A stretch of 64,000 nucleotides of DNA, taken from the NCBI GenBank assembly GCA_037146775.1, contig JBAWWL010000002.1, positions 198,554-262,553 on the forward strand. The letters run 5' to 3'. A program made the position numbers and the translations under genes. This DNA is from Candidatus Omnitrophota bacterium. GTDB lineage: Bacteria; Omnitrophota; Gorgyraeia; Duberdicusellales; 4484-171. Position 1 is the first letter of the stretch. Each line of letters begins with the position of its first letter. Shown here one piece after another: positions 15,049-60,390 of this stretch. A model generated the notes under the pieces. That model had not been told where the DNA came from. It saw only the letters and a list, made by a program, of their open reading frames with translations, and did no database searches.

Positions 15049-15194
15049 TCGCAGGGTCGTTATCCGGAGATTTCTATTTTGACATCTTTCTAATTCCGCA
15101 GTAAAGTAGATAATATATAGCTTTTTTAAACTAAGCTTTCCACGATAGGCAGACAAAGCTAAGCATTTAAACAAATCATAAAGGAGATTGCCAG

Positions 15195-16235
15195 ATGACA
15201 GCAAAGGAAAAATTAGATTTATCCGCCATCGCCGAAGAAGAGCTTTTGAAGCTGCGCGTAAAAGACTTGCCTTTAAGTATAGAGGGTACCTGGCTTGCCG
15301 ATTGCGTTCAGCAGTTTTACCAGGAACTAGAATCAAAAGGTATAAAATTTAAGCCTGTTTGTTATCTGGCTGATGAATGGTTTGCTCCTGATCAAGAGCC
15401 GGAAATCAGCATACCGTTCTTTTTGGCCCACCCCGCGCTTATAAAACTTGAAAAGAAAATGATGCGTGAGGCTGAAGGAGAAACCAAGTCTTGGTGTATG
15501 CAGCTTTTACGCCATGAAGCCGGACACGCTATCAACTATGCGTATAAATTATATCAATTACCGGAATGGAAAAAAATATTCGGCCAGTTTTCCAAAGAGT
15601 ATGGAGATGCGTACAGGTTTCGGCCTTACAGTAAGAGTTTTGTCAGGCATTTGGAAAAGTATTATGCACAATGCCATCCCGACGAGGATTTTGCCGAAAC
15701 CTTTGCGGTGTGGCTTACTCCGGGTTTGGATTGGCAAAATCAGTATAAAGGCTGGAAGGCTTTAGGTAAGCTCCAGTATGTTGACAGAATTGTGCAGGAA
15801 ATTAAAGACAAGCCGCCTCTGGTTAAAAAAGGCCAAAAATACCGCAAGGCGTCTTTGTTGAAACTTACCTTGGCGAATTATTATAAAAAGAAAAAACATA
15901 TTTATGCCGAAGATTTTCCTGATTTTCACGACAGCAACCTCACCAAGATATTTTTTGATCAGCATAAGGATGATACGAAACTTCCCTATGCTTACAGCAT
16001 AATCAAAAAGTATAAAGATACAATCGGCGATAACGTTTCAATCTGGACCGGAGAAAAAAAATTCATCATAAACGATTTGCTCGAGACATTGATCGCAAGG
16101 TGCAGGCATCTCGGTTTGTTGAATCCGATTTCTGAGCAGCAGGCAATACTTAAGGTTTCGGTTTACGTTACCGCGCTGATAATGAACTATGTGCATACCG
16201 GAAGATTTTTGAGGAAAGAATGGAAAAGAAGTTAA
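15195..16235 (+). CDS. Putative zinc-dependent metallopeptidase-like protein (HExxH)
   Basis: HEAGHAINYAY motif. No other assignable features. Confidence 0.35.
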   Translation: MTAKEKLDLSAIAEEELLKLRVKDLPLSIEGTWLADCVQQFYQELESKGIKFKPVCYLADEWFAPDQEPEISIPFFLAHPALIKLEKKMMREAEGETKSWCMQLLRHEAGHAINYAYKLYQLPEWKKIFGQFSKEYGDAYRFRPYSKSFVRHLEKYYAQCHPDEDFAETFAVWLTPGLDWQNQYKGWKALGKLQYVDRIVQEIKDKPPLVKKGQKYRKASLLKLTLANYYKKKKHIYAEDFPDFHDSNLTKIFFDQHKDDTKLPYAYSIIKKYKDTIGDNVSIWTGEKKFIINDLLETLIARCRHLGLLNPISEQQAILKVSVYVTALIMNYVHTGRFLRKEWKRS

Positions 16236-17242
16236 AAGTCCTCTTGGTTTTTGACTGTCCTTATCATACCGAGCGCGGTTATGACTTTGCCAAGGAATTC
16301 AAAGAACCGGATTGGGATACCCAGCTTAATGTGTACGAGGCGCTCAAAGAAAACGGCCACGAGGTAAGCTTGCTTGGGGTGCACGACGATACCATCGTAT
16401 TGGTTGAAGAAATACGCCAGAATAAACCCGACGTGGTGTTTAATATTATGGAGGGATTTAGAAAAAAAACCAATCTTGAAAGAAATGCTGCCTGGTTGCT
16501 TGAGATGCTGAATCTTCCTTTCACTGGCGCAGGAGCGAGCGCGCTTCTTATTTGTAACGATAAAGCTATCAGTAAAAAGATCTTAAGTTTTCATAAAATA
16601 CGCGTGCCGAATTTCCATACTTTTTATCGAAACAGAAAAGTAAAGCCCATCAAGCGGCCTAAGCTGCCTTTGATTGTTAAGCCTTTATGTGAAGAGGCTT
16701 CTGTGGGTATATCACAGGCGTCGGTGGTAGACAGCACGGAGGCCTGTGTTGAGAGGATAAAATTCATTCATGAAAAAAATAACATGGATGCTATTGTGGA
16801 AGAATATATTGCCGGAAGAGAATTCTACGTAAGTGTGGTAGGCAATAAAATGCTTGAAGTTTTGCCCATACGGGAAATGAAATTCGGCGAGATCGCCGAA
16901 CCGGAAAGTAGAATTGCCACCTACAAGGCAAAGTGGGACAATGATTACCGCAAAAAATGGGGGATACAAAATGTTTTTGCCAATAACATGCCTGAAGGGT
17001 TAGAAAAAAAGCTTACGCATATTTGCAAAACTGCCTACCGGGCGTTACAACTGAATTCTTATGCCCGCTTTGATGTGAGAGTTACCGCTGACGGGCGTAT
17101 TTATGTTTTAGAGGCCAACGCCAATCCTTGTCTGGCTAAAGATGATGAGATAGCCCAGTCTGCGGAGAAAAGCGGCACCCCCTACAATAAACTCATCCAG
17201 AAAATAGTCTCCCTCGCGTTAAATAATATCGATAATGCGTAA
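16220..17242 (+). CDS. ATP-grasp enzyme of the D-alanine-D-alanine ligase family
   Basis: A Ddl-like N-terminal domain and an ATP-grasp C-terminus (FDVRVTADGRIYVLEANANPCL). Confidence 0.55.
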   Translation: MEKKLKVLLVFDCPYHTERGYDFAKEFKEPDWDTQLNVYEALKENGHEVSLLGVHDDTIVLVEEIRQNKPDVVFNIMEGFRKKTNLERNAAWLLEMLNLPFTGAGASALLICNDKAISKKILSFHKIRVPNFHTFYRNRKVKPIKRPKLPLIVKPLCEEASVGISQASVVDSTEACVERIKFIHEKNNMDAIVEEYIAGREFYVSVVGNKMLEVLPIREMKFGEIAEPESRIATYKAKWDNDYRKKWGIQNVFANNMPEGLEKKLTHICKTAYRALQLNSYARFDVRVTADGRIYVLEANANPCLAKDDEIAQSAEKSGTPYNKLIQKIVSLALNNIDNA

Positions 17243-39732: not shown

Positions 39733-40575
39733 ATGTTAAAGCGATACATATCAAAAAAAATAATCCAGACTTTACTGCTGTCTTGTATCTGTGGCATTCT
39801 TTGTATCTCCCAGGTACTCGCCGGTGATATTGTTATCTACGGAGATAGCCAGTTTAGTAATGATGCCCAGCGTAAAGTAGTAAGAGCTATCCTAGAATGC
39901 AAGCCCGCAATAGTTTTCCGGGTAGGGGATCTTACGGCAGACGGTCGCAGCCTAAAACAATGGGAAACCTTTCATAAAATCAATGATAAGCTTATACAAA
40001 GTAGCGAATACTTCCCCGCGCTTGGCAATCACGAATATAATTCTGCGCTCTATTTTAGTAATTTTAATCTAGCGCTTGATAAACGGTGGTATTCAGTCCA
40101 GCGCCAAGGCATCCATTTCATTGTCTTAGATAGCAATTCCAGCCTCGATAAAGATTCAGAGCAATACAAGTGGTTAGAGCGAGACTTAAGCAACGTCGGG
40201 AAAGATATCAAATTTCGTATTGCGCTCTTTCATCATCCGTTATTTGATACCGGCTGGCACAAGGAAGACGAGAAAGGGCTAAAGCCTGTTCTTATTCCTT
40301 TATTCGAGAAGTATGGTGTGTCTGTAGTGTTTTCCGGCCATGATCATAATTATCAGCGCTTTAGATATAATGGCATCTTTTATATTATTACCGGCGGAGG
40401 AGGAGCACCTCTTTATGGCCGCCTGCGTAAGAGTTCGTATCTTGAGAAATTCGCTCTCGCATATCATTTTTGTCTGTTGTCTGTAACAGATAATGTGCTG
40501 AAGATTAAAGTGCTTGATACTAAACTGCAAGTTCTTGACGAATTTGATATCAAAGAGAAAGTATATAGTCGATAG
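39733..40575 (+). CDS. Secreted calcineurin-like metallophosphoesterase
   Basis: GDLTADG, GNHEY and FSGHDHNYQR metallophosphoesterase motifs. The ATG at 39733 gives a signal peptide and is preferred over the GTG at 39682. The last codons overlap a GTATATAGT repeat array. Confidence 0.65.
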   Translation: MLKRYISKKIIQTLLLSCICGILCISQVLAGDIVIYGDSQFSNDAQRKVVRAILECKPAIVFRVGDLTADGRSLKQWETFHKINDKLIQSSEYFPALGNHEYNSALYFSNFNLALDKRWYSVQRQGIHFIVLDSNSSLDKDSEQYKWLERDLSNVGKDIKFRIALFHHPLFDTGWHKEDEKGLKPVLIPLFEKYGVSVVFSGHDHNYQRFRYNGIFYIITGGGGAPLYGRLRKSSYLEKFALAYHFCLLSVTDNVLKIKVLDTKLQVLDEFDIKEKVYSR

Positions 40576-40685
40576 TATATAGTCGTGAGTATTGAGTACT
40601 GAGTATATAGTGGGGGAAGGACGTATATAGTATAGAGTACATAGTATATCGTAAACAAACTGGGCGGAGGGTAACGGGGAACTCG

Positions 40686-40764
40686 GTGGACGGTTGCGGT
40701 TACTCGCCTCGATTTGCTCGGCGAAGCGGGCGAAGCTCGTCTCGGTTACGTCTAACGGTAACGT
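40686..40764 (+). repeat. GC-rich ~80-bp element, left copy of an inverted pair bracketing 40.7-45.6 kb
   Basis: ACGGTTGCGGTTACTCGCCTCGATTTGCTCGGCGAAGCGGGCGAAGCTCGTCTCGGTTACGTCTAACGGTAACG is ~90% identical to the reverse complement of 45532-45615. Confidence 0.55.
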
Positions 40765-41065
40765 TTTATAATAAACTCTAAACCAAAATATTTCAAACTC
40801 AAAACACTATTGTTTAGGATTTTGAATTTATGATTTTGGATTTGTTTAGGATTTAGTCCTTCGACTTCGCTCAGGACTAATGGCGAGCACAGTCGAACCA
40901 TTAGAGTTTTCCACCTCCATAATGCACTTATTATGGTGGATCCGCCTAAGTTTTAACGGTGGCGGAAGTGTTTAGGGTTTATTTACCACAACCTCACGAC
41001 TACATACTCTATACTACATACGACATATTATCTCCCTACTGCAATGCTTGACAAGATAATCTGTT

Positions 41066-41644
41066 ATGGTACTTTATTACCATAAACATGGTGACAATAT
41101 GATATCCTTACGTTCAAAAGTGGCAATAAAATTACTGGACTACTATTTTCTTAATCCGGATACTCATGCGTACATCAATGAATTGGCCAGGACATTAGAG
41201 CTTGATCCTAAAAATACCGAAACTAAACTTAAGGAATTTGAGAAAGAAGGCCTTTTTAAAAGCGAATTCCGCGGAAAAGAAAGATATTTCTTTCTCGCAA
41301 AGGATAACCCCGTTTTGGAGCATTACCGCCAGATTTTTCTAAAGACCTATGGTATAGAAAAGAGGCTTCAAGATATGCTGCGGGGGATTAAGGGGCTTAC
41401 GGAAGCATATCTATTCGGTTCATATGCAAGTAACAAGATGAACTCTTCAAGCGATATTGATATCCTAGCTATTGGCACGCACTCTGTTTTAGAATTGCAA
41501 AGATTCATCGCAAAATTGCAGAAAGATGTCGGTAGAGAATTCAATGTAACGAATTTAAACCTAAAGGAATTCGAGGCAAAGAAAAAATGTAAAAACCCTT
41601 TTATAAATAGCGTTTTTAAAACTAAGACTATAAGGCTTATATGA
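41066..41644 (+). CDS. Nucleotidyltransferase (MNT-type antitoxin-like) with an N-terminal winged-helix region
   Basis: The GS...SDIDIL nucleotidyltransferase motif (LFGSYASNKMNSSSDIDILAIG). 4-bp overlap with the downstream HEPN gene. Confidence 0.6.
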   Translation: MVLYYHKHGDNMISLRSKVAIKLLDYYFLNPDTHAYINELARTLELDPKNTETKLKEFEKEGLFKSEFRGKERYFFLAKDNPVLEHYRQIFLKTYGIEKRLQDMLRGIKGLTEAYLFGSYASNKMNSSSDIDILAIGTHSVLELQRFIAKLQKDVGREFNVTNLNLKEFEAKKKCKNPFINSVFKTKTIRLI

Positions 41645-42039
41645 TTAATTTTGAAAGTCAATACTTTCAGAAACTGGCATTTAAAAAGGAGCAAATTGAC
41701 CAATTCGTAAGGTCCGCCCTTCATGATCTTAAGATAGCTCAAAATTCGGATATTGTGGATGTTATCTTTAAGTTCAGTTACGATGCGCTCATAAAATTAG
41801 GTATTGCGCTCATTGCTAAGAAAGGGTACAAAATAAGGAGCACAATCGGTCATCATGTTAAGATACTTGAGAAACTGAGCCAAATACTTGGAGAAGAGGA
41901 TGTCCTCGTGCTTGGCAATAAGATGAGACAGGAACGTAATGTTAATCTTTATGATGGCGGTTTCTTTATTGGAGAGAAAGACAGCCGCGAATATTTGGAT
42001 TTTGTAAAGAAAGTTTTTAAGAAAGCAAGCATAGAATAG
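41641..42039 (+). CDS. HEPN-domain protein (toxin partner of the MNT)
   Basis: Rx4H motif (KIRSTIGHH). All-alpha HEPN-sized protein coupled to the MNT gene. Confidence 0.6.
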   Translation: MINFESQYFQKLAFKKEQIDQFVRSALHDLKIAQNSDIVDVIFKFSYDALIKLGIALIAKKGYKIRSTIGHHVKILEKLSQILGEEDVLVLGNKMRQERNVNLYDGGFFIGEKDSREYLDFVKKVFKKASIE

Positions 42040-42060
42040 TTAGCAAGCACCAACAAGCAT

Positions 42061-42290
42061 TCTTTAATTTTTCTCCCCTTACTATGTACGACATACTCTG
42101 TACTACATACTTTTTTATGTTTAATTTTTCTCCCTCCCATTATCTTTTCCCCGGTTTCAATTTTTAATATTTAATTTTTCTTTTACTCTATACTCATTAC
42201 TCAATGCTCACGACTACATACTATGTACTACATACTCCATGCTACCCATTATTGCCTAATAACCTACCAACATAATAACCTATCAACCAT
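42061..42290 (+). repeat. G-depleted degenerate short-repeat array (TACTACATAC / CCTA(A/C)CAACAT units)
   Basis: ctatgtacgacatactctgtactacatac...cacgactacatactatgtactacatactccatgctacccattattgcctaataacctaccaacataataacctatcaacc. Related arrays occur at 40981-41015, 45340-45480, 45621-45700 and 51170-51250, and on the opposite strand at 34681-34760 and 40561-40655. Confidence 0.5.
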
Positions 42291-42585: not shown

Positions 42586-45177
<2,592 letters not shown>

Positions 45178-45531
45178 AAGAGTGCTTAATATAATAACTA
45201 AAATGGAGTATGCTCCATTATGGTAATACTAATATGGAGGGTGTTTTTACGGGCACTGTGGTCCGGGAAAATAATTTAAGTAGAGGATAGCTGTCCCAAC
45301 CTTTTCTGCATATCAATTCGCTAATCCTTTAACCCTTCCTGTCCTTATATATCCATTTTTAATATTTGATATTTAATATTTAATTTTTCTCCCCCCTTCT
45401 TGCCTAATAACCTATCAACATACCAACCTATCAACCTATATCCTTTTCCCCCCCCTGCTATGTACTACATACGCCATACTACATACGATCTTTCTTTATG
45501 TTTCGCACACGTCATCCGTTATGATGTATGA

Positions 45532-45615
45532 GCCGTTGCCGCTAAACGTAACCGATACGAGCTTCGCCTGCTTCGCCGAGGGAATCGAGGCGAGTAACCG
45601 TAACCGTTCGCCAAG
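45532..45615 (-). repeat. GC-rich ~80-bp element, right (inverted) copy
   Basis: Its reverse complement GCTTGGCGAACGGTTACGGTTACTCGCCTCGATTCCCTCGGCGAAGCAGGCGAAGCTCGTATCGGTTACGTTTAGCGGCAACGG matches 40686-40764. Confidence 0.55.
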
Positions 45616-45919
45616 CTTGCCTACTATGTAATCTATACTCCGTACTACCCATTATTGCCTACTAACCTATCAACATACTCACCTATTAACCATTATAGTT
45701 AATTCATAAAAAAACTATTGACATCTTTTTATATAATGTTAAATTAAAGTAACGGTTTTTTTTAATGAGGCAGCAACTTTTCAAGCCTATAGGCAAAGAA
45801 AAATTGCTTAGCCGAATTAATCCGACGAGGCTGCTAAAATTATGGTAGAGGATTTTAGCGTATGTAAGTCCGAGTCGGGATATGTACAGAAATTATATTA
45901 AGGATAAAAAAGGAGGGGT

Positions 45920-46534
45920 GTGATGATAAAGGGTAATTTAAGGATTGGTTTTGTTTTCTTGTTTGCTTTACTTCTTACCGTAAGCGCTGTGTATGCAGAA
46001 ATTAATCTTTCCACTTCCGGCGGAAAGTTAGGTATTAAAGCCGCAGGTAAAACTACTAATTTAGATAGTAATACCACTGAAACCACCGTTTCCGATTCAT
46101 CAGGAGCAAAAGTTGATATAAATTATAATGCCGCAGAAGGTACTGCTAGTTTAGCTTCTAGCACAGGCACCGCCACCCTCACGTATAATATCGCAAAAAT
46201 ATTTTTAGATAACGGTGAATCTGCTGACGTAGGCCCTACCGGCCCATACGGAAGTTTTTATATTACCAATACTTCAGGTGAGGGAAAGATTGTTGTAATA
46301 TTCCCCGACAACTCGAAAATCACCATGCCTCCAAGTGCGAAAGTTTCTCTCACTTTTCTTGCTGACGACAATTTTAATTTAAAAGTATTAGAGGGAACGG
46401 TTGAATATGTTGACGCGAAAGGTAACGCGCAGATGCTAACGCCAAACTCTCCTGCGATATTCGTAAAGGGTTTCGGCCAGGTTCCTGGCTGGCGTAGCAT
46501 TGAACCTGACAGGTTACATCCTGCAACCCCATAG
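45920..46534 (+). CDS. Secreted Thr/Ser/Gly-rich hypothetical protein
   Basis: Signal peptide. SD AAGGAGGGG upstream. First gene of the glycan locus. Confidence 0.3.
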   Translation: MMIKGNLRIGFVFLFALLLTVSAVYAEINLSTSGGKLGIKAAGKTTNLDSNTTETTVSDSSGAKVDINYNAAEGTASLASSTGTATLTYNIAKIFLDNGESADVGPTGPYGSFYITNTSGEGKIVVIFPDNSKITMPPSAKVSLTFLADDNFNLKVLEGTVEYVDAKGNAQMLTPNSPAIFVKGFGQVPGWRSIEPDRLHPATP

Positions 46535-46600
46535 TTTATTATTTTGTAATTTGAATTTTGTTATTTGTCATTACCAAAGAGGAGGATGAACGTGGAAAAG

Positions 46601-50830: not shown

Positions 50831-53533
50831 GTGGTGTGCAGAGAAGATTTCAATCAATCCTCACGTAAATCCAATTCTTTCATATTTAAAATCACCTTAT
50901 TCAGTGCTATTCTTCTAATTCCACTTGTTGCCTCTACTGAATATCTTTGGGCAATCAGCTTCATCATTCTTTTAGGAAGTATTACCTTATTGGTGATTGC
51001 CTTGGATATTTTTCATTCCAAGCGCATTGAATTTATTCCAACCTTCATTCTTCCCCTTATTTTATTTTTACTCATCTATTTTCTCATCACCCTAATATCT
51101 CTCCCAGCCTTTATTTTGCAATTTCTCTCCCTCCGTGCCTTCGCTATCTATAGCAACTATTTGCCCCCCGCTTCGCCTACCAACCTACCAACATCTTTGT
51201 ATACCAACATACCAACATATCAACCTACTAACCTATTTACCCTTTATCCTATTAGCCTATACCCACACAATACGCTCGTAGGCTTAGGTGTAGCACTATC
51301 TTTTTTCGCCATATTTCTATTCCTCATTAATAATCTCGACAGTTTTCGTTTAAGGATAAAGATAGTAAAAACAATTATTTTTTCTGCTACTCTCGTAACT
51401 TGCTTAGGAATTATTAATATGCTAATTCAGAATAAAAAATTGTTCTGGTTTATAGATATAATATCCGGTACACCCACAGGCCCTTTTATTAATACCATTC
51501 ACTTCGCCTCATTCGTGGCGCTCTATATACCTTTGGTATTGGGCATATGGGTTGGTAAAATTGATTTTCATATAAAAGATTGTAAATTCGGCAAAGCTAA
51601 GTCAATGCTCTATAAGTTCATAATATTTATAAAAAATTCAATTATCTATTTACTCCCGGCTTTGTTGATGATATTCGCTTTATTTAAGTCGCTTTCCCGC
51701 GGAGCAATGTTAGCTTTTTGTACTTCAATGTTTATCTTTGTATTGCTTATAGCTTTTAAATCAAAAACTCGTCTACGCGCTATCATTCTTCTAGTTTTTA
51801 CTTTTTCGTTTTTAGCTTTGACTTTCTATGTCGACTCGTTTAATATCAAATCCAAAATATTGTCATTAACCAATAGTCAAGGCGAAAACGCCATATTCAA
51901 CCAAGATATAACAGAAAGAATTTCTACACTTAAACACCCGTTGCAAACCGATAGTGCAAAGACGCGTTTTAGTGTTTGGCGTGATACTCTTAAGATATTT
52001 TCTGATTTTCCGTTATTTGGCACAGGCCTAAATACTTTTAGCATTATTTTTCCTAAATATAAGACTATCTATGGTTCTGGAAAAATGTTTTTTACTCACT
52101 CCGAGAATGATTATGTTGAAACTCTATCTGAAGTTGGTTTATTAGGTATAATACCAATATTATTAATCTTGATAATCTTTTTAAGAAACACATTCATAAA
52201 TTTTAAATTAGAAACCGACTCTCTAAAAATTGGTATTATTTCTGGTGGCATCGCTTCCGTTTTTGCGCTTCTTTTTTGCGCATTAACCGATTTTTCTTTC
52301 CATATCCCTTCTGTTAGTTTTATTTTTATGCTTATCTGTTTCGTAATTTGGCCAAAGACAAAAAAAAGAAAAATTATCTCATTTAATGATATGGTGGGCA
52401 GGAAGAAACCTATAGCTATTGTGGTATTGCTATTTTTAGTGGCAATATTTATGTTTATATTTTCTGTTCAACTATTATTAGGCGAAATATATTTCTATAA
52501 ATTTAATTATTCTCAAGATAGCTTTCAGGTTAAACAAAACTATATTAAAAAAGCTGTCTTTTTTAATAATGGTAATGCGGAATATAGGTACTCTTTAGGA
52601 AAAATTTATTTTGATCAAGCGACTTTGCTAAGGAATAAAGATGAAGCTGCAGCTTTAGAGCTTATCAAACAGGCGAAAACAGAATTTGAAAAAGCGATAA
52701 TTTTGCAACCTACTCATTGGAAGTACCATTTTTTTAACGGCTCAGCTGAACTTATTCTTGTTTCTTCTCGGGTCAAGGGCTATTCTTTTAACAATGCTGA
52801 ATCTTCCTTTGAAAAAGCCTTAAGTCTAAATCCTACAGAATACGATATATACGGTTATTTAGCTAATTACTATTTGCCTTTTGATTCAGAAAAAGCATTT
52901 AAGTATTATCGTAAGCTTATCATGCTTAGGCCATATTATTTAGGTAGTATATTAGATACTATTTGGAAAATAAACAATAATCCTGACTTTATCCGAGAAG
53001 CCATTCCCAGTACTCCAAGGTTAATAGCGCAATACGCTGATTTTTTAAAATCTAAAGGTATCAATTCTGCTAAATTCTATAAAGAATCTGCTTTTCTCGC
53101 GTCTCCTTCCGCAAAAAATAAAGAAGACCAACTTGCTATCGCCCAAAAGCTCGCTCTTTCCAATGGTTTCAAGGACGCTTTTGATTATTTCCTTGATTCT
53201 TTACAGTCAAGTAGCTTTTTCCAAAAGAATAAAGAACAATTTATCATCCCGACATATTCTAGTGAACAACTTATAAAAGAAGAGGAGAATGTCAGCACAT
53301 TACAAAAAACACTTTCTCCCGACGATCCTCAGCTAACATATAAATTAGCCCTTTTCCATTATCAGCTAAAGGACTATAATAAAGCTTCTGAATACTTTAT
53401 GAAATTACTAAAAATCTCTCCCAACAACCCCTTTCTGCGCTTCCACCTCGCTATGGCATTGTATAAGAGGGGAGAGCATAAAGAGGCGTACGAGGAGCTC
53501 AGGCAGGCTATTACTTTGATTAATGACAGATGA
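50831..53533 (+). CDS. O-antigen ligase/polymerase-like (Wzy_C) polytopic membrane protein with a C-terminal TPR domain; start uncertain
   Basis: Many TM helices then a TPR-like C-terminus (YFMKLLKISPNNPFLRFHLAMALYKRGEHKEAYEEL). The first ~140 codons include a repeat-derived low-complexity stretch (PTNLPTSLYTNIPTYQPTNL) encoded by the CCAACMTA array at 51170-51250. Confidence 0.55.
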   Translation: MVCREDFNQSSRKSNSFIFKITLFSAILLIPLVASTEYLWAISFIILLGSITLLVIALDIFHSKRIEFIPTFILPLILFLLIYFLITLISLPAFILQFLSLRAFAIYSNYLPPASPTNLPTSLYTNIPTYQPTNLFTLYPISLYPHNTLVGLGVALSFFAIFLFLINNLDSFRLRIKIVKTIIFSATLVTCLGIINMLIQNKKLFWFIDIISGTPTGPFINTIHFASFVALYIPLVLGIWVGKIDFHIKDCKFGKAKSMLYKFIIFIKNSIIYLLPALLMIFALFKSLSRGAMLAFCTSMFIFVLLIAFKSKTRLRAIILLVFTFSFLALTFYVDSFNIKSKILSLTNSQGENAIFNQDITERISTLKHPLQTDSAKTRFSVWRDTLKIFSDFPLFGTGLNTFSIIFPKYKTIYGSGKMFFTHSENDYVETLSEVGLLGIIPILLILIIFLRNTFINFKLETDSLKIGIISGGIASVFALLFCALTDFSFHIPSVSFIFMLICFVIWPKTKKRKIISFNDMVGRKKPIAIVVLLFLVAIFMFIFSVQLLLGEIYFYKFNYSQDSFQVKQNYIKKAVFFNNGNAEYRYSLGKIYFDQATLLRNKDEAAALELIKQAKTEFEKAIILQPTHWKYHFFNGSAELILVSSRVKGYSFNNAESSFEKALSLNPTEYDIYGYLANYYLPFDSEKAFKYYRKLIMLRPYYLGSILDTIWKINNNPDFIREAIPSTPRLIAQYADFLKSKGINSAKFYKESAFLASPSAKNKEDQLAIAQKLALSNGFKDAFDYFLDSLQSSSFFQKNKEQFIIPTYSSEQLIKEEENVSTLQKTLSPDDPQLTYKLALFHYQLKDYNKASEYFMKLLKISPNNPFLRFHLAMALYKRGEHKEAYEELRQAITLINDR

Positions 53534-53542
53534 CAAGATATA

Positions 53543-53566
53543 CAATGACAAATTACAAAGCTCAAA
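53543..53566 (+). repeat. Left arm of a ~24-bp inverted repeat bracketing 4HB gene 1 (partner at ~54016-54039)
   Basis: AATGACAAATTACAAAGCTCAAAT versus the reverse complement of downstream ATTTGAATTTTGTACTTTGTCATT (21/24). Additional ATGACAA copies upstream and TTTGTCAT copies downstream. Confidence 0.5.
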
Positions 53567-53615
53567 TGACAAATAATATCAGACTAACAAAAGTCACTTA
53601 ATAACAAAGGTCAAA

Positions 53616-53987
53616 ATGGAAATGACAAAAGGTATAGTTGGAGATAATAAATTTGACCTTGAAGGTAGAACGTTGATTTTTGCTAAAAATTGCATTGATT
53701 TGTGTAAAATGTTGATGTGCGACACTATAAACAGGGAATTAATAAGCCAGCTTGTAAGGGCTTCTGGCTCAGTAGGTGCAAACTATCGAGAAGCGAACGA
53801 AGCTCTAACAAAAAAAGATTTTTTCCACCGCATTGGAATATGCAGAAAAGAGGCTAAGGAAAGCAAATACTGGTTAGAATTATTGTCACATACTAATCCA
53901 AAGCTTTCTAATAAAATTGAGGTATTAGCTGACGAAGCATTGCAATTAGCGCGTATTTTCTCAGCTATAGTAAAAAAACGCGTCTAG
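53616..53987 (+). CDS. Four-helix-bundle protein (PF05635/TIGR02436 family: 23S rRNA IVS protein / DGR Avd-like)
   Basis: QLVRASGSVGANYREA..KKDF...CRKEAKESKYWLELL matches the family consensus. It is paralogous to 55638-56003 and 57310-57711. Confidence 0.65.
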   Translation: MEMTKGIVGDNKFDLEGRTLIFAKNCIDLCKMLMCDTINRELISQLVRASGSVGANYREANEALTKKDFFHRIGICRKEAKESKYWLELLSHTNPKLSNKIEVLADEALQLARIFSAIVKKRV

Positions 53988-54127
53988 TTTTTCCTTTCGT
54001 ACTTTTTTGTTATTTGAATTTTGTACTTTGTCATTAACCAATATTTGACATTTGAATTTTGTAATTTGTTCTTAGTTCATTTGTCCTTTGTGCTTTGTCA
54101 TTTGTCATTTTAACCGTAGGTTAACCC

Positions 54128-55519
54128 ATGTTCATAAGTAGTCGTAAATCGTTTCTCACCGGCAAGTCCAAGCTTATCTTCATCGATATTCTGGCTCTGT
54201 GTCTTTCTGTTTATTTAGCAACTATTATTCGAATTGGCTGGGAAGACGCAAATCGTTATATCAGCTTAAAGCTCTTGCCTCTTGGTTTCGGTATTTTTAT
54301 CTTTCTTACCTTATTTTATCTTCATGGTTTATATGAACTGCATTTTTTTGATACTTACTTAAAGCTTATCTCACGAGTAATATCTGCAGTTCTCCTTGGT
54401 ATTTTAATCTATACTTTTATTTTTTATGCTGTATTTACGTTTGCTATAGGTAGAGGTGTATTTACCTTAATGGCATTGCTCATCGCTACATTTGTTTTTT
54501 TCCCCAGAATATTTTATATCTCGGTTGCCAAAAGAAATATTTTAGGTGAAAAAGTAATTATAGTAGGTACTGGTGAAGCAGCTTTTGACATCATCAATAT
54601 TATAGATAAGCACCCCACTTGTCCTTATAGAATAATCGGTGTTATTAGTGAAAAAGAAAAAGAAACTATCTCTAGCTTTGGGCACCATCAACTTATGGGT
54701 TCCATTGATGATATTGATCAAATCGCCGAGCAAAATAAAATTGACACAATCATAATTACAACTCTAGAGCCAAGGCGTTCCAAAATATTAAAACATTTAA
54801 GAGTATGTCGTTATCATGGTGTGCGTATTATCGATAGTGTTTCTTTATATGAAGAGATTGAGGGTAGAGTTCCTCTGCAATATATAGATGATGAATGGCT
54901 ATTTTCTTCCAACATGAATTATTCTAACTTTCACATCAAAAAATTAAAAAGGTTAATGGATATTATTGGTTCTTCGATTGGTATTATTCTCGTTTTCCCT
55001 TTATGCCTTGTCGTGAGTATTCTTATCAAGTTTGATTCAATCGGGCCTATTTTCTATCGACAAAAAAGATTAAGTCGAGATGGCAGGATTTTTCGCTTGC
55101 TCAAATTTCGCTCAATGATTCATCGTGCCGAGCGAGGATTGGGCGGTCCGGTGTGGTCACAAACAAATGATAACCGTATCACTCGAGTGGGTAAATGGAT
55201 GCGTAAAACTAGAATTGATGAAATTCCCCAGCTTATTAATGTGTTTTTAGGCCACATGAGTCTAGTGGGTCCTCGACCTGAACGCCCCGCTTTTATTAAA
55301 GAACTATCTGAAAAAATTCCCTTTTACTTAGAAAGGCTTTACGTTCAACCTGGCTTAACCGGCTGGGCGCAAATTAACTATCCTTATACCGCTACAATAG
55401 AGGAGTCAAGAATAAAACTGCAATACGATTTATACTACATCAAACACGTCTCCTTTTTGTTAGACTGCCTTATTCTATTGAAAACCATCAAAATCGTCCT
55501 TCTCAGCCGCGGCCGTTAG
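54128..55519 (+). CDS. Undecaprenyl-phosphate sugar phosphotransferase (WbaP/WcaJ-type priming glycosyltransferase)
   Basis: Five TM helices, then a C-terminal bacterial sugar transferase domain ([25 protein letters not shown]...[21 protein letters not shown]). Confidence 0.8.
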
Positions 55520-55602
55520 CTATTTACCCATATAAACCCTGTCTTATTTCCGACGTGGATTGTATTGACGCATTGTGATATGTTATGATATAATTAAAAC
55601 TT

Positions 55603-55616
55603 AAAAGTAAAAAGTC
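55603..55616 (+). repeat. Left arm of a 14-bp inverted repeat bracketing 4HB gene 2 (partner at ~56022-56036), with further TTTTAACTTTT / TTTACCTTTTTCGTTTTAAC tandem copies downstream to 56180
   Basis: TTAAAAGTAAAAAG upstream. CTTTTTACTTTTAA downstream. Confidence 0.45.
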
Positions 55617-55637
55617 AAAACTAAAAATATAAGTTAA

Positions 55638-56003
55638 ATGGAGAATAAAGTTTACGATTTAAAGAAACGTACGTATGTGTTTGCTTTAGATGTTATTAGG
55701 TTTCTTGAAAGTTTACCAAAGGATTATATTTCTATTGTTATCGGGAAACAGTTGTTACGCTCAGCAACTTCTGTGGGAGCGAATGTGGTCGAGGCGCAGG
55801 CTTCTAGCTCCAAGAAGGATTTTATAAATTTCTATAATTATTCATTAAAATCCGCAAACGAAACAATATTCTGGCTAAGTTTACTTAAGGATGCAAATAG
55901 AGATCCTAATCAGAAAATACCTCTTCTTCTAAGCGAAACACAGCAGCTCTCAAAAATTCTTGCTGCAAGCATTCTGACAATGAAAGGAAAGAGAAAGCCT
56001 TGA
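55638..56003 (+). CDS. Four-helix-bundle protein (PF05635 family), paralogue 2
   Basis: QLLRSATSVGANVVEAQ..SKKDF..NETIFWLSLL. Confidence 0.65.
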   Translation: MENKVYDLKKRTYVFALDVIRFLESLPKDYISIVIGKQLLRSATSVGANVVEAQASSSKKDFINFYNYSLKSANETIFWLSLLKDANRDPNQKIPLLLSETQQLSKILAASILTMKGKRKP

Positions 56004-56182
56004 ATTTAAATTTTCGCTCTAACTTTTTACTTTTAACTTATTTTATTCAGTGGATTACTTTTTCGCGTTTTGATTTTTAACTTTTACCTTTATTTCGTTT
56101 TACCTTTTTCGTTTTAACTTTTAACGTTTCTGTTCAAAGTATTCACTTTTACCTTTTTCGTTTTAACTTTTAACTTAATAAT

Positions 56183-56419
56183 ATGACCGTCAACGATAAT
56201 GAAATCTACACCTTAGAAGAAGCTCAGTCTATATTAAAGATCAGTCGCTCCACCCTATTGCGTCTTATCAAGAAAGGTCTAATTAAAACCGCAAAAGTCG
56301 GCCGTCAATATCGAATCTGGGGTAATGAAATTCTGCACATCATGTCCCCATCTTTAGAAGGCAAAGTCCGTAAAGAGTATAGGAAAAGTAGGGAATGGTT
56401 GTATAAAGGCATAAGTTGA
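56183..56419 (+). CDS. Excisionase-family / MerR-like helix-turn-helix DNA-binding protein
   Basis: YTLEEAQSILKISRSTLLRLIKKGLIKTAKVGRQYRI matches the excisionase-family DNA-binding domain pattern. Confidence 0.5.
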   Translation: MTVNDNEIYTLEEAQSILKISRSTLLRLIKKGLIKTAKVGRQYRIWGNEILHIMSPSLEGKVRKEYRKSREWLYKGIS

Positions 56420-56452
56420 TAGGCCTTATGTTTTTAGGCATAGGAGGTTAAT

Positions 56453-57286
56453 TTGGACAACACTTCGCAAAAAACTATTGTTATCGAAGCAGGCCGGACG
56501 AGGGGATTATATTGGAGAGATCTTTGGCATTATCGTGCATTATTTTATTTCTTATCTTGGCGGGACATTCTTGTCAGGTATAAACAAACAGTTATTGGTA
56601 TTGCTTGGAGCGTTATCAGGCCATTGCTTACCATGGTTGTCTTCACTTTTGTATTCAGCAAATTAGCGAAATTTCCTTCTGAAGGCGTTCCATATCCTAT
56701 CCTGGTCTTTACCGCTATGCTTCCTTGGCAATTTTTTGCGAATGCTCTTAGCGAAAGCAGTAATTCCCTTATTACTAACGCTAATATGCTTACCAAAGTT
56801 TATTTTCCGCGGCTCATCGTTCCCGTAAGCACCATTATCGTTTGTCTAGTTGATTTTATTATATCATTGTTACTTCTTGTTGTGCTTATGGTGATATATA
56901 AGTTTACCCCTTCTTTAAATATTTTAATACTGCCACTATTTCTTCTTCTGTTGCTGATTTTTTCTCTTGGTCTAGGTCTTTATATATCAGCATTAAATGT
57001 AAAGTATAGAGATTTCCGTTACGTCGTTCCTTTTATCGTCCAGTTCGGACTTTATATTTCACCCGTTGGTTTTAGCTCAAGCGTTGTTCCTGATAAGTGG
57101 AAATTATTTTATTATTTGAATCCAATGGTAGGAATAATTGATAGTTTCAGATGGGCAATCCTTGGAGAGAGTGTTCATATCTATTGGCCGGGATTTATCC
57201 TTTCTATTATCTTATCTGTAGTTATTTTCATTTTTGGTTTACTGTATTTTCGTAAAACCGAACGCACGTTTGCTGATATTATATAA
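56453..57286 (+). CDS. ABC-2 type polysaccharide export permease (Wzm/KpsM-like)
   Basis: GLYWRDLWHYRALFYFLSWRDILVRYKQTVIGIAWSVIRPLL and six TM helices. Confidence 0.7.
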   Translation: MDNTSQKTIVIEAGRTRGLYWRDLWHYRALFYFLSWRDILVRYKQTVIGIAWSVIRPLLTMVVFTFVFSKLAKFPSEGVPYPILVFTAMLPWQFFANALSESSNSLITNANMLTKVYFPRLIVPVSTIIVCLVDFIISLLLLVVLMVIYKFTPSLNILILPLFLLLLLIFSLGLGLYISALNVKYRDFRYVVPFIVQFGLYISPVGFSSSVVPDKWKLFYYLNPMVGIIDSFRWAILGESVHIYWPGFILSIILSVVIFIFGLLYFRKTERTFADII

Positions 57287-57300
57287 TGAATTCTTTGTTA

Positions 57301-57326
57301 TAGTTACCAATGTCCAATGAGCTAAT
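57301..57326 (+). repeat. Left arm of a ~25-bp inverted repeat bracketing 4HB gene 3 (partner at ~57757-57781)
   Basis: CAATGTCCAATGAGCTAATGACGAAT versus the reverse complement of downstream ATTCGTCATTCGGATTTGGACATTG, which is CAATGTCCAAATCCGAATGACGAAT. Confidence 0.55.
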
Positions 57327-57711
57327 GACGAATAAAATATCAATGATTCAAGCCAACAATAGTAAATACGATTTACGTGAGCGAACAGCAAAGTTTGGCG
57401 AAAATGTCATTAATTTTGCTAAAAGAATTCCAGAGTCTACTATAAACCGGCCCTTGATAAGTCAGTTAGTAAGAGCGGCTACAAGCGTGGGCGCAAATTA
57501 CTGCGAAGCAGATGATGCTACCACTAAGAAGGATTTCCTATACAGAATTGCTGTGTGCAGAAAGGAGTCTAAAGAGTCCAAGCATTGGTTGCGGATGGTA
57601 ACGATGGCTATTCCGGCGTTGAAGGATGAAGCGAATTTGTTATCTAATGAAGCGCAGGAATTGAATCTTATTTTTTCTGCGATTATCAATAAAGGAAAAG
57701 CTAAATCTTGA
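57310..57711 (+). CDS. Four-helix-bundle protein (PF05635 family), paralogue 3
   Basis: QLVRAATSVGANYCEA..KKDF..CRKESKESKHWLRMV. Confidence 0.65.
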   Translation: MSNELMTNKISMIQANNSKYDLRERTAKFGENVINFAKRIPESTINRPLISQLVRAATSVGANYCEADDATTKKDFLYRIAVCRKESKESKHWLRMVTMAIPALKDEANLLSNEAQELNLIFSAIINKGKAKS

Positions 57712-57810
57712 TAGGCTAATTTGTCATTTTGACTTGTTCATTGGGATTTCAGTATAGTTCATTCGTCATTCGGATTTGGACATTGTGATTTTAGTTTAGA
57801 CTTTAAGTTT

Positions 57811-59070
57811 ATGAGTACGGTCATCAAAGTCGAAAATCTAGGCAAAAGATACGTTATAAGTCACCAAGAGCAACAGCGCTATCGGACTCTTCGTGATGTT
57901 GTTACTAATAAGTTTAAATCATTCGGCAAGAAGACGGCTTCGACCAAAGAGGAAATATGGGCGCTCAAAAATGTTTCGTTTGAAGTAAAGCAAGGAGAAA
58001 GAGTTGGCATTATCGGAAGGAACGGCGCGGGTAAATCCACTCTGTTAAAGCTATTAAGCAGAATAACCGAACCAACGAAAGGTAAGATTGGGCTGTGCGG
58101 CCGTGTGGGGAGCCTTCTTGAGGTTGGCACCGGTTTTCATCCTGAGTTGACCGGGAGGGAGAATATATATCTTAATGGCGCCATCCTAGGTATGTCAAAA
58201 TCGGACATACGCAAGAAATTTGATGATATTGTTGCTTTCGCGGAAATTGATAAATTTCTTGATACGCCAGTTAAGCGGTATTCGTCAGGAATGTATGTCC
58301 GGCTTGCCTTTGCCGTTGCTGCCCACTTGGAACCAGAGATTCTTTTGGTGGATGAAGTTCTTGCCGTTGGTGACGTCTCATTCCAGAAGAAATGTTTAGG
58401 AAAAATGGAGGATGTGTCTCAAGAGGGCCGGACCCTCCTATTTGTAAGCCACGATCTGGTGGCGGTCAGAAAACTTTGTAAAAGAACTATCCTTTTATGT
58501 GATGGAAAAATAGAGAAAGATGGTTTTACCGACAGCGCTATTGATGCATATTTGAATTATTCCAGGAACGCGACAGAAGGATTGTATTGCTGGAATGAGC
58601 CTGCGGGTCGTCAGAAAGTTTGGCCTGTGCAATTAGAGATATTAGATGAATCGATGAATCGAATATCCAATATTCCTTTCGATAGTGCTGTAACCATAGC
58701 GCTAAGAATTAAAGTGTATGAAGCGTTTAGCTTCCAGGTGAGCCTTCGCATCACTAACAATCTTGCGATTCCCATCTTTTCTACTGAGCCAAGTCAAGAG
58801 CTTATGTTTTATAATCGCGGTTATTATAATTTCTCTCTTAAGTTGCCGTTCGCTTTATTGTCGCCAGGTTATTATCGTGTTGCGTTGGGTATCCATGATC
58901 CAGGAACAGAGGTATTTTTTTTCGAAGAGCAGATATTGTCGTGGCAAGTAATCGAGACGGGTACAAATATGGCAAAATACAAGAAATATCATGAAACAGG
59001 AGTAATTATTGTTGATATTCCCTGGGAAATAATTTATAACAAACAGGATGGCAAAATTGAACCGTGTTAA
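57811..59070 (+). CDS. Polysaccharide ABC exporter ATP-binding protein (Wzt-like) with a C-terminal glycan-binding domain, copy 1
   Basis: Walker A GRNGAGKST, signature YSSGMYVRLAFA, Walker B LLVDEVLAVGD, plus a ~200-aa beta-rich C-terminal extension (Wzt_C-like). Confidence 0.8.
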   Translation: MSTVIKVENLGKRYVISHQEQQRYRTLRDVVTNKFKSFGKKTASTKEEIWALKNVSFEVKQGERVGIIGRNGAGKSTLLKLLSRITEPTKGKIGLCGRVGSLLEVGTGFHPELTGRENIYLNGAILGMSKSDIRKKFDDIVAFAEIDKFLDTPVKRYSSGMYVRLAFAVAAHLEPEILLVDEVLAVGDVSFQKKCLGKMEDVSQEGRTLLFVSHDLVAVRKLCKRTILLCDGKIEKDGFTDSAIDAYLNYSRNATEGLYCWNEPAGRQKVWPVQLEILDESMNRISNIPFDSAVTIALRIKVYEAFSFQVSLRITNNLAIPIFSTEPSQELMFYNRGYYNFSLKLPFALLSPGYYRVALGIHDPGTEVFFFEEQILSWQVIETGTNMAKYKKYHETGVIIVDIPWEIIYNKQDGKIEPC

Positions 59071-59145: not shown

Positions 59146-60390
59146 ATGTCAGTAGTCATCAAAGTCGAAAATCTAGGCAAAAGATACGTTATAAGTCACC
59201 AAGAGCAACAGCGCTATCGGACTCTTCGTGATGTTGTTACTAATAAGTTTAAATCATTCGGCAAGAAGACGGCTTCGACCAAAGAGGAAATATGGGCGCT
59301 CAAAAATGTTTCGTTTGAAGTAAAGCAAGGAGAAAGAGTTGGCATTATCGGAAGGAACGGCGCGGGTAAATCCACTCTGTTAAAGCTATTAAGCAGAATA
59401 ACCGAACCAACGAAAGGTAAGATTGGGCTGTGCGGCCGTGTGGGGAGCCTTCTTGAGGTTGGCACCGGTTTTCATCCTGAGTTGACCGGGAGGGAGAATA
59501 TATATCTTAATGGCGCCATCCTAGGTATGTCAAAATCGGACATACGCAAGAAATTTGATGATATTGTTGCTTTCGCGGAAATTGATAAATTTCTTGATAC
59601 GCCAGTTAAGCGGTATTCGTCAGGAATGTATGTCCGGCTTGCCTTTGCCGTTGCTGCCCACTTGGAACCAGAGATTCTTTTGGTGGATGAAGTTCTTGCC
59701 GTTGGTGACGTCTCATTCCAGAAGAAATGTTTAGGAAAAATGGAGGATGTGGCGAGGCAGGGAATGACCGTTATTTTCGTAAGCCATAATATGGGAGCAA
59801 TTGAGAATTTATGCCAACGTACTATATTGATTGACGCCGGAGCGGTGAAAAGGGACGATGATACATCGACAACGATTGCGTTATATTTAGAAAATATTTC
59901 TACGAATATTTCAACTGTGTCGCTGTTGGAGCGTAAAGATCGCTCAGGATCAGGAATCGTTAAATTCTCTGATTTTCGAATAGAAGATTTGCTGGGTAAT
60001 TCGTTGAATGTTGTTCATAGTGGGCAAGATATTGTCTTTATTTTTGATTTTGCCTCGACAAATTCCGCAAACTCGCTTAACGTAGATGTCGGTTTTGGTG
60101 TTTTTTCTCCCATGGGTCAACTTCTTTTTGTTCTTTATAGTAGCTATACTGGAGAAGAATTTAAAGAGCTTGCCATACAAGGGAGTTTTTGTTGCAGAGT
60201 TAATAAATTACCATTGATACCTGGACGGTATAGAGTAGGGGCACGAATTGTGGTGGGGCAGGATGAGTCTGATTGGCCGGCCGACGGTATCGGTTATTTC
60301 GATGTTGAGGCTGGTGATTTTTACGGTACAGGGAGTATGGGGTTTGGCCAGTGTCCGATATTAGTTGACGGTTCGTGGTTTTTGAAATAA
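59146..60390 (+). CDS. Wzt-like ABC ATP-binding protein, copy 2 (5' 610 bp identical to copy 1, different C-terminal domain)
   Basis: Nucleotides 59152-59762 are identical to 57817-58427. Divergence begins after ...KKCLGKMEDV. Distinct C-terminal beta-rich domain. Confidence 0.8.
   Translation: MSVVIKVENLGKRYVISHQEQQRYRTLRDVVTNKFKSFGKKTASTKEEIWALKNVSFEVKQGERVGIIGRNGAGKSTLLKLLSRITEPTKGKIGLCGRVGSLLEVGTGFHPELTGRENIYLNGAILGMSKSDIRKKFDDIVAFAEIDKFLDTPVKRYSSGMYVRLAFAVAAHLEPEILLVDEVLAVGDVSFQKKCLGKMEDVARQGMTVIFVSHNMGAIENLCQRTILIDAGAVKRDDDTSTTIALYLENISTNISTVSLLERKDRSGSGIVKFSDFRIEDLLGNSLNVVHSGQDIVFIFDFASTNSANSLNVDVGFGVFSPMGQLLFVLYSSYTGEEFKELAIQGSFCCRVNKLPLIPGRYRVGARIVVGQDESDWPADGIGYFDVEAGDFYGTGSMGFGQCPILVDGSWFLK

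Follow-up and report, generated by a model that had tools for sequence, protein, structure and literature searches.

Why do three small open reading frames (ORFs) of one protein family occupy spacers of a single sugar-polymer operon? The question is raised by a 64,000-nt stretch (hereafter the window) of Candidatus Omnitrophota contig JBAWWL010000002.1 (assembly GCA_037146775.1, positions 198,554 to 262,553), where three ORFs for four-helix-bundle (4HB) proteins, here called c1, c2 and c3, all lie on the + strand in spacers of such an operon. A first-pass annotation had described them as inverted-repeat-bracketed cassettes with the layout of the intervening sequences (IVSs) of 23S rRNA. The reading we favour, and consider reasonably probable, is that they are three independent insertions of a compact cassette of ~0.5 kb, made up of a heptamer array, the 4HB ORF and a reverse-complementary array. 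The cassette would be the same type of element as the ORF-bearing 23S IVSs, with arms that pair and are probably cut by RNase III.

Three PF05635 genes of the IVS-protein branch

The c1 gene (53616..53987, + strand, 123 aa) lies behind a Wzy_C/TPR gene, c2 (55638..56003, + strand, 121 aa) behind the gene for the priming transferase (PGT) and c3 (57340..57711, + strand) behind wzm. All three exceed the curated cut-offs of PF05635 (33.8 bits) and of TIGR02436 in NCBIfam (24 bits), with scores of 53.1 and 75 bits for c1, 75.4 and 91 bits for c2, and 46.5 and 66 bits for c3, bearing out the family membership proposed for these ORFs by the first-pass annotation. For c3 the longest ORF runs from 57310, with an initial 30 nt that belong to the upstream arm described below; alignment of the N-termini indicates that the start is probably the ATG at 57340 (‘MIQANN’). 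The neighbours were likewise correctly named as glycan genes, since domain matches across the locus comprise Poly_export, a Wzz/tyrosine-kinase-like domain, Wzy_C O-antigen-ligase/TPR, Bac_transf, ABC2_membrane (Wzm) and two ABC_tran/Wzt. No fourth 4HB copy was found in the window with a hidden Markov model (HMM) built from c1-c3. The exact c2 protein is recorded as a ‘four helix bundle protein’ in an Omnitrophota metagenome-assembled genome (MAG) at NCBI, and the exact Wzm protein likewise comes from a Candidatus Omnitrophota MAG.

The family is large, with 17,500 representatives at 50% identity (E <= 1e-3), nearly all of them stand-alone proteins of 115-135 aa, and we know of no function for it apart from that of a distant relative, the accessory protein Avd of diversity-generating retroelements (DGRs). 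Comparison of c2 with its relatives gave dN/dS values of 0.07-0.10 with 61-83% of synonymous sites different, so that the 4HB protein is evidently under strong purifying selection (dN/dS about 0.08).

The kinship with Avd raises the possibility that the genes are DGR remnants, Avd genes without their reverse transcriptase (RT). Avd shares with the cassette proteins a four-helix bundle of ~110-125 aa and pentameric relatives. The AlphaFold model of c1 (pLDDT 89.7; helices at 15-31, 37-61, 66-93 and 95-120) aligned in Foldseek with phage Avd (4DWL, TM 0.69/0.77) and with Avd of a DGR ribonucleoprotein (8UB7, TM 0.69/0.76), at non-significant E-values and 7-10% identity, and one relative of our genes lies between a bAvd gene and an RT. 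Against such an origin, the best structural matches were to 2RLD (Bacteroides BT_0352, TM 0.75-0.85) and 2GSC (Xanthomonas XCC0516, TM 0.76-0.83), two crystal entries with five chains each. These were also the only sequence-level matches in the PDB of a profile built from c1-c3 and nine relatives (E = 1.7e-27 and 0.005, respectively); the profile did not reach Avd. None of c1-c3 matched PF22296 (bAvd) at E < 0.01, profile comparison with real bAvd in hhalign gave a probability of 0.4%, and no relatives were found in viral contigs. Given the low bAvd probability and the best structural matches to 2RLD and 2GSC, we assign the c1-c3 proteins to the IVS-protein branch and not to Avd proper. An RT or bAvd homologue is absent from the window (tblastn best E 0.9-3), and the locus is therefore not a DGR, as had been noted earlier. 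Repeat finding in 53400-57900, which included no search aimed at adenine-differing template/variable repeat pairs, returned heptamer arrays only. We give almost no credence to the DGR-remnant explanation.

Mirrored heptamer arrays bracket each ORF

Inverted repeats of 17-59 nt with 71-88% complementarity surround each ORF, the downstream word being present in several degenerate tandem copies. Inspection by eye and autocorrelation showed that these repeats are parts of longer arms, arrays of degenerate heptamers spanning 45-125 nt and mirrored across the ORF. The bracketing repeats reported by the first-pass annotation are thus real, but not of the 14-25 bp given for them. Flank complementarity was scored as the RNA duplex energy of the upstream with the downstream spacer, against 300 dinucleotide shuffles. 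The flanks of c1 reached -45.2 kcal/mol (z -4.9) and those of c3 -33.6 kcal/mol (z -3.5), with 0/300 shuffles as good in either case. The earlier expectation of a stem exceeding shuffled controls holds for these two copies and only weakly for c2, whose values are given below where the reading is weighed. In the minimum-energy folds of the whole c1 and c3 cassettes, a long terminal stem closes and includes the start codon region; the folds and shuffles agree with the IVS-like layout that had been proposed, in which the ORF is the loop of a long closing stem. Chance or a low-complexity artefact was rejected as the source of the arms on the strength of the dinucleotide shuffles and matched control genes. 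No Rfam family was found in the region or in the whole window.

The c1 upstream arm (53517..53615, + strand) opens within the final five codons of the Wzy_C/TPR gene (stop 53531-53533) with GACAGAT and GACAAGAT and continues to GACAAAT, TACAAAG, CTCAAAT and GACAAAT up to the start codon. It contains inverted repeats I1, I2, I4, I6 and I8, shows a lag-7 autocorrelation excess of 0.10 and was marked by the periodicity scan at 53516-53676. Its counterpart downstream (53988..54112, + strand; lag-7 excess 0.24) is built from the T-rich heptamers ATTTGTC, CTTTGT, CATTTGT, CCTTTGT and GCTTTGT and holds three degenerate copies (54006-54036, 54044-54074 and 54080-54110, direct family D3), each complementary to the upstream arm. 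It stops just short of the conserved leader ‘AACCGTAGGTTA’ of the priming-transferase gene, a right boundary set by comparison with an orthologous locus, L176 (loci fetched for comparison carry L numbers).

The c2 upstream arm (55595..55637, + strand) consists of A-rich heptamers of the types AAAACTT, AAAAGT, AAAAAGT, CAAAACT and AAAAGTA, ends at the ATG without a Shine-Dalgarno (SD) sequence, and contains inverted repeats I3, I5 and I7 (lag-7 excess 0.22); c2-type cassettes of other genomes have homologous arms. Directly upstream, outside the cassette, lies a sigma-70-like promoter match (55565..55594, + strand; TTGACG-18-TATAAT with TG), which agrees with the consensus at 11/12 positions and is a consensus match only. 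The proximal downstream arm (56004..56048, + strand) is formed by eroded T-rich heptamers (I3, 40 nt at 75% complementarity) and its identity to relatives is near null. Extra downstream arrays (56061..56180, + strand; CTTTTAC, GTTTTAA) follow and end 2 nt before the start at 56183 of a helix-turn-helix (HTH) gene; they carry one unit twice, at 56091-56125 and 56140-56174 with 91% identity (direct families D1 and D2; I5 and I7), and the periodicity scan marks 56064-56203.

The c3 upstream arm (57287..57339, + strand; lag-7 excess 0.18) fills the interval between the end of wzm and the probable ATG start with CCAATGT, CCAATGA, GCTAATGA, CGAATAA and AATGACG. Through inverted repeat I24 it is matched to the downstream arm (57712..57810, + strand; TTCATTC, GTCATTC, GGATTTG, GACATTG), which ends at the wzt start codon (57811) and was marked by the periodicity scan at 57730-57813.

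The layout is the norm of the family

A scan of one genome per species gave 80 loci of the family, and 173 loci were fetched in all; among the 80 are members of Omnitrophota, the candidate phyla radiation (CPR, Patescibacteria), Dehalococcoidia, Flavobacteriia, Planctomycetes, Verrucomicrobia, Gammaproteobacteria and other groups. For the 94 4HB genes with full flanks, the flank duplex had a median z of -2.8, with 66% below -2 and 48% below -3, compared with a median of -0.14 and 2.7% below -2 for 110 other genes of the same loci (Mann-Whitney p = 1e-22). Both flanks showed 7-nt periodicity (lag-7 excess 0.12 and lag-14 excess 0.07, against 0.015-0.02 in controls), and lag 7 was the best lag in 48/62 upstream and 41/62 downstream arms. 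The arms lie close to the ORF, with at most ~10 nt between upstream arm and start codon, and with most downstream arms beginning no more than 10 nt past the stop. None of the 173 loci contained the sarcin-ricin-loop or peptidyl-transferase-centre (PTC) motifs of 23S rRNA, and we therefore place all these copies outside rRNA.

Mirrored arrays, down to their variant heptamers, were found in Planctomycetes, Verrucomicrobia, CPR, Flavobacterium and Nostoc punctiforme. In the Pirellulaceae locus L033, AATGACC, AATGACC, AAGCACC and AATGACC upstream are answered by GGTGCTT, GGTCATT and GGTCATT downstream, so that the variant unit is mirrored too; the verrucomicrobial locus L080 has AATGACG x4 and CGTCATT x4. 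A cultured organism, Nostoc punctiforme PCC 73102, carries GTCGGAG/GTCGGAA x4 upstream and CGACCTC/CGACTTC x5 downstream of NPUN_RS34315. The IVS-like layout is thus the norm of the family and not peculiar to this locus, which corrects the first-pass reading.

Arms and ORF are inherited as one unit

The arms had been described as copy-specific. Arm type instead follows the subfamily, and c2-type arms were found again in other genomes. When c2-type copies at unrelated loci were compared, the ORF and ~55 nt per arm were common to them, after which similarity stopped. Within the subfamily, one heptamer occurs in three versions, CCACAAG, GCACAAG and GTACAAG, each matched by its own complement, and pairing is better within a cassette than between arms taken from sister cassettes (exact permutation p = 0.035). 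Downstream arms are 85-92% identical in some pairs whose synonymous sites differ by 61% or more. Across the family, the heptamer word correlated with the protein tree (Mantel r 0.275, p <= 0.0005). Taken together, the alignments indicate that the ORF and its arms are inherited as one unit.

Cassettes seem to come and go at orthologous junctions

Since a scan of metagenomes returned no priming-transferase relative above 39% identity, orthologous loci were found through Wzm instead. L176 is such a locus (PGT 71% identical over 463 residues, HTH 87%, Wzm 76%, Wzt 54-59%) and has the same HTH-Wzm-Wzt gene order as the window. Its wzm-wzt spacer measures 6 nt, and that of L177 12 nt, against 524 nt in the window, where the spacer holds c3; at this junction, the coding sequences of L176 and the window align to the stop codon and again from the start codon. 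The L176 counterpart of the promoter-like element at 55565-55594 reads GTATTGACACATTATGACACATTATGATAC and is followed ~85 nt later by the HTH gene, whereas 588 nt, including c2, separate the two in the window. Immediately after the c1 cassette the window reads AACCGTAGGTTA...ATG, in agreement with the PGT leader of L176. A further case is the atpH-atpA junction, occupied in L173 by a cassette whose heptamers are GC-rich, and empty in L167. No target-site duplication was visible at the c2 and c3 junctions against the empty sites, in genomes diverged enough for short ones to escape, and the junction comparison with L176 revealed no fixed terminal sequence at the cassette ends.

The three window copies are 50% (c1-c3) and 37% (c1-c2) identical, compared with 62% between c1 and its counterparts in L007/L008 and 76% between c2 and P0002, and they sit in three different clades; we therefore regard them as independent insertions and not as local duplicates. 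Local tandem duplication of one gene was tried as an explanation and rejected, since every copy has nearer kin in other genomes than beside it in the window. The description of the three genes as local paralogues thus failed, with c1 and c2 both nearer to other-genome copies. In other Omnitrophota, c2-type cassettes lie before an ATP-synthase operon, between genes for adenosylhomocysteinase (AdoHcyase) and archease, among pilin genes, between a response regulator and a histidine kinase, and between a bAvd gene and an RT. Presence and absence at orthologous sites, together with close copies in unrelated contexts, mark these units as apparently mobile or horizontally spreading cassettes, and the first-pass suggestion of small mobile modules gains from both the empty junctions and the unrelated contexts of the closest relatives.

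These comparisons also bear on the idea that the cassettes are host-beneficial parts of the glycan locus, acting as regulators or as RNA ‘punctuation’ that sets the stoichiometry of ligase, priming transferase and Wzm-Wzt. The window itself invites it, with three copies in 4.3 kb and none elsewhere, all in sense orientation at cistron boundaries. Yet the orthologous locus works without cassettes, 80 PGT loci (694 kb) contained zero 4HB genes, close relatives occur in ATP-synthase, pilus, two-component, CRISPR and DGR contexts, and a Brocadia wzm-wzt junction carries a HEPN/nucleotidyltransferase pair instead. We consider a glycan-specific role very improbable, and the cassettes have no special tie to glycan loci.

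The Brocadia junction is found in L178 (1804-2615; Candidatus Brocadia, Wzm 75% identical), where the HEPN and nucleotidyltransferase genes show no heptamer periodicity in their flanks; small accessory modules seem to be tolerated when they land at the wzm-wzt junction. The cassette next to a DGR gene lies at L173 127-2604, with the bAvd gene preceded by a heptamer array (127-247). On plasmid pANACY.01 of Anabaena cylindrica PCC 7122 (L175 1027-3118), a 4HB gene on the opposite strand separates cas2 from cas1 and is followed by c2-type GTAAAAA heptamers. A figure legend on CRISPR-associated protein domains in a large CRISPR survey names ‘23S rRNA IVP’ (PMC10910872), an association that might reflect such insertions. 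In a pair of near-identical contigs from different samples, a small GIY-YIG gene adjoining a response regulator and a 4HB gene is present in one (L001 8667-8903) and absent from the other (L003).

RNA processing and its alternatives

The cassettes fill the stop-to-start gap, or for c2 the promoter-to-start gap, exactly and in sense orientation. Terminator-like sites in 53300-58000 numbered 0, with 3.3 expected; with no such site in between, the cassettes must be co-transcribed with the glycan genes. Across the family, both neighbours were co-oriented for 82% of 4HB genes compared with 64.5% of controls (p = 0.0013), and the median gaps of 62 and 87 nt correspond to the arm lengths.

We propose that in the transcript the two arrays of a cassette pair into a long imperfect duplex around the ORF, which lacks an SD sequence of its own, and around its start codon. 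Since the arms are repeats of one 7-nt word, several pairing registers would be available and the stem would survive slippage. By analogy with the rRNA IVSs, the duplex is probably cut by RNase III, plausibly the most likely fate of such a stem. Cleavage would free the cassette RNA and split the cistrons on either side from each other. The host would lose little by it, which would explain the tolerance of operon spacers and of a few rRNA helices for the element. The 4HB protein has pentameric relatives and is kin to the RNA-binding Avd; its target is probably the arrays or the stem, and its purpose probably the maintenance or spread of the element rather than glycan synthesis.

A number of observations weigh against this proposal. 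The c2 flanks are weakly complementary (-31.2 kcal/mol, z -1.8, 16/300 shuffles as good), and its own-arm duplex of only -18 kcal/mol is the weakest among 7 subfamily members. About 1/3 of the family copies show no significant flank complementarity. Five Flavobacterium loci (L037, L050, L051, L063 and L065) have direct rather than inverted arrays, with AATTTGG upstream and a flank z of ~0; this upstream word is the reverse complement of the one expected for pairing. A G·U wobble test for selection on the RNA strand was negative (sense 154, antisense 143, p = 0.56), and arm mismatches were random in type, with transitions to transversions at 1:2. Duplex energies favoured the sense over the antisense strand (39 vs 23, p = 0.0025), but the cleaner wobble count disagreed and we do not rely on that result. 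RNAalifold on the arms of the c2 subfamily found no consensus stem, only a 10-bp A·U helix, a failure that may be ascribed to repeat arrays aligning and pairing in ambiguous registers. Selection on pairing at the RNA level is thus weakly indicated at best. RNase III cleavage is argued here by analogy, movement has no known mechanism, and the junctions showed no target-site duplication. Finally, 20/42 heptamer tracts in the Omnitrophota loci come without any 4HB gene, and at 40560-42250 the window contains a second type of module bracketed by heptamer arrays, around a nucleotidyltransferase gene; the arrays may therefore be a more general intergenic feature.

The negative wobble count and the random mismatches leave a role of the arrays at the DNA level as a serious rival, which we nevertheless consider unlikely. 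Here the mirrored arrays would be multi-site ends, like the repeated subterminal sites of some transposons. Either the 4HB pentamer or a host factor for recombination or replication would recognise them and thereby move or copy the cassette, with the RNA hairpin arising incidentally. Symmetric G·U counts and a random mismatch spectrum between arms fit this explanation, as do arm sequences conserved far beyond synonymous sites, the occurrence of solo arrays and of arrays in direct orientation, and presence and absence at orthologous junctions. The word AATGAC(N), common to Omnitrophota, Planctomycetes and Verrucomicrobia and found in rotated form in the Coxiella IVS, would point to sequence-specific recognition. 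Several features speak for the transcript instead: the sense bias and the flush fit between stop and start codons are more easily explained by transcript constraints, and the only experimentally studied members are RNA-processed. Nor does the 4HB family have a known catalytic motif or recombinase fold, and the lack of both a target-site duplication and a fixed terminal sequence sits poorly with such ends. Heptamer words, moreover, vary widely between subfamilies while the invariant residues of the protein stay constant.

In most copies the upstream arm lies within ~10 nt of the start codon or overlaps it, and no SD sequence is present. This could alternatively mean that the stem is a switch for translation and stability of the 4HB mRNA in an ordinary, tightly regulated accessory gene, its 5'-3' pairing masking the start codon and shielding the small RNA, much like the fold-back inhibition of hok-type mRNAs. 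Purifying selection requires that the protein be made at some point, and in Coxiella processing takes away the SD region, with no protein detected (PMC4990558). A switch leaves the spread to unrelated junctions, the empty orthologous sites and the ORF-less array hairpins unexplained, however, and neither toxicity nor a regulator function is known in the family. We judge it improbable, and take the inserted, RNA-processed cassette as our working explanation in what follows.

Comparison with rRNA IVSs and other repeats

The IVSs of Leptospira, Coxiella burnetii, Xanthomonas and Brucella (‘S23p’) share with the cassettes the PF05635 family and a size of ~0.43-0.5 kb. In both, complementary termini form a long stem with the ORF as its loop (in the window, c1 and c3, with c2 weak), and the ORF lies in sense orientation in the host transcript and has a poor or absent SD sequence. 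The Coxiella IVS encodes an S23p ORF, has a 28-bp terminal stem and is cleaved by RNase III in vitro; tandem GACAGAT units (x2-3) precede its start codon, in a copy number that varies by strain (PMC4990558). The c1 arm likewise opens with GACAGAT-GACAAGAT and goes on to GACAAAT units. The host RNA differs, being an mRNA operon spacer here instead of helix 9, 25 or 45 of 23S rRNA. So does the state of the ORF, reported as decaying in Coxiella, while those described here are intact and under purifying selection. Excision by RNase III, without religation, has been demonstrated for rRNA IVSs and would apply to the cassettes by analogy.

Avd, aligned with c1 at TM 0.69-0.77, works bound to structured RNA, 8UB7 being an RNA-protein complex; the cassette proteins are set apart from it by the lack of sequence-level similarity, of an RT and of relatives in viral contigs.

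Correia elements resemble the cassettes in being small, inverted-repeat-bounded, intergenic and co-transcribed with their neighbours, with hairpins that are RNase III substrates. They are, however, non-coding, of 100-155 bp, with fixed 26-bp terminal repeats and a TA target duplication, whereas the cassettes carry a conserved intact ORF, end in heptamer arrays of variable word and length, and show no duplication. The mirrored arrays do amount to terminal inverted repeats, though as arrays rather than as a single fixed repeat. Other intercistronic hairpins that are cleaved or stabilise flanking RNA include the RNase III sites R1-R5 of phage T7 early mRNA and the enterobacterial repetitive extragenic palindromic and bacterial interspersed mosaic elements (REP/BIME palindromes). 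Unlike the cassettes, these are short, non-coding and of host or phage regulatory design, and are not spreading ORF-bearing modules.

Heptamer repeats have been described as GGGAATC in Xanthomonas, with ~70 convergent (inverted) pairs (PMC4692102), as GGGGA(T/C)T in Nostoc and as TAACTGA in Beggiatoaceae, in an excess left unexplained. As in our cassettes, they are tandem 7-nt units in spacers of co-oriented genes with variable copy number. The papers make no mention of PF05635, whereas the arrays described here form mirrored pairs around a 4HB gene.

A possibly widespread class of cassettes

The literature covers IVSs in rRNA, Avd, the ‘four helix bundle protein’ in genome lists and the unexplained excess of intergenic heptamers. 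In the searchable part of it, which leaves most subscription journals outside and makes a prior description possible, we found no link of heptamer arrays to PF05635 genes and no IVS-type cassettes in operon spacers. To our knowledge, the origin and purpose of bacterial rRNA IVSs have been open questions since about 1990. As the design is the rule in ~100 non-rRNA copies and cassettes seem to come and go at orthologous junctions, the rRNA IVS looks like one landing site of a widespread element.

A broader proposal, which we hold tentatively and regard as possible rather than probable, is that ORF-bearing rRNA IVSs are a rare special case of a very large, pan-bacterial and unrecognised class of cassettes in operon spacers, each with the gene for a PF05635 pentamer in mirrored heptamer arrays. 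Through the arrays, in the form of RNA or of DNA, the 4HB protein would bring about processing, protection or propagation of the element. A good share of the intergenic heptamer excess would go back to cassettes and to derivatives lacking the ORF; this share would include the convergent arrays of Xanthomonas and the cyanobacterial short tandemly repeated repetitive (STRR) sequences, which may be related heptamer repeats. Even for part of that excess, the cassettes offer a concrete candidate explanation. Tractable cultured carriers are Nostoc punctiforme PCC 73102 (NPUN_RS34315) and Bacteroides thetaiotaomicron (BT_0352). For annotation, operon-internal ‘four helix bundle protein’ genes would be better read as passenger insertions than as pathway components.

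Arrays without a 4HB gene and neighbouring features

In the second module type of the window (40560-42250), AGTATAT/AGTCGTG-type arrays at 40560-40656 are complementary to ACTACAT/TATACTC-type arrays at 40993-41022, 42080-42103 and 42185-42236 (52 nt at 87%). The arrays enclose a 336-nt GC-rich, ORF-less stretch and the nucleotidyltransferase gene (41066-41644), which overlaps a 132-aa ORF with an RSTIGHH motif, possibly a HEPN protein. T-rich and ACTACAT-type arrays also occur together at 45349-45486, and a solo array at 46516-46571 (TTTGTAATTTGAATTTTGTTATTTGTCAT) consists of words of the c1 downstream arm with no adjoining 4HB gene. Decayed 4HB genes were considered for the ORF-less units at 40657-40992, 45150-45950 and 56000-56190 and discarded, as none gave a signal.

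Elsewhere, ORF-less hairpins of inverted heptamer arrays lie in operon spacers at L171 15142-15250 and L173 2872-2956. Such hairpins may be cassette derivatives after loss of the ORF, comparable with the short ORF-less IVSs of enterobacterial rRNA. In L167, c2-type upstream and downstream arms (15145-15206 and 16654-16702) bracket a T2SSF gene. A transmembrane-helix stretch of the ligase-like ORF in the window (51773-51828, CTAGTTTTTACTTTTTCGTTTTTAGCTTTGACTTTC) resembles the c2-type downstream arm of L167 at ~29/31 positions by eye; the match could be chance in a T-rich coding sequence or a captured arm.

The HTH gene just upstream of wzm (56183-56419) encodes a small HTH_17/excisionase-like protein, 87% identical to its L176 counterpart (4634-4951), with a sub-threshold score of 42 bits against the MamR model. 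The transporter genes may have a dedicated regulator in this protein. Downstream of c3, two tandem genes for Wzt-type ATPases (57811-59070 and 59146-60390) encode products that are near-identical over ~200 N-terminal residues and then wholly divergent, with a Wzt_C domain match in the second only. The pair looks like a recent partial duplication, or a recombination that swapped the glycan-binding C-terminus.

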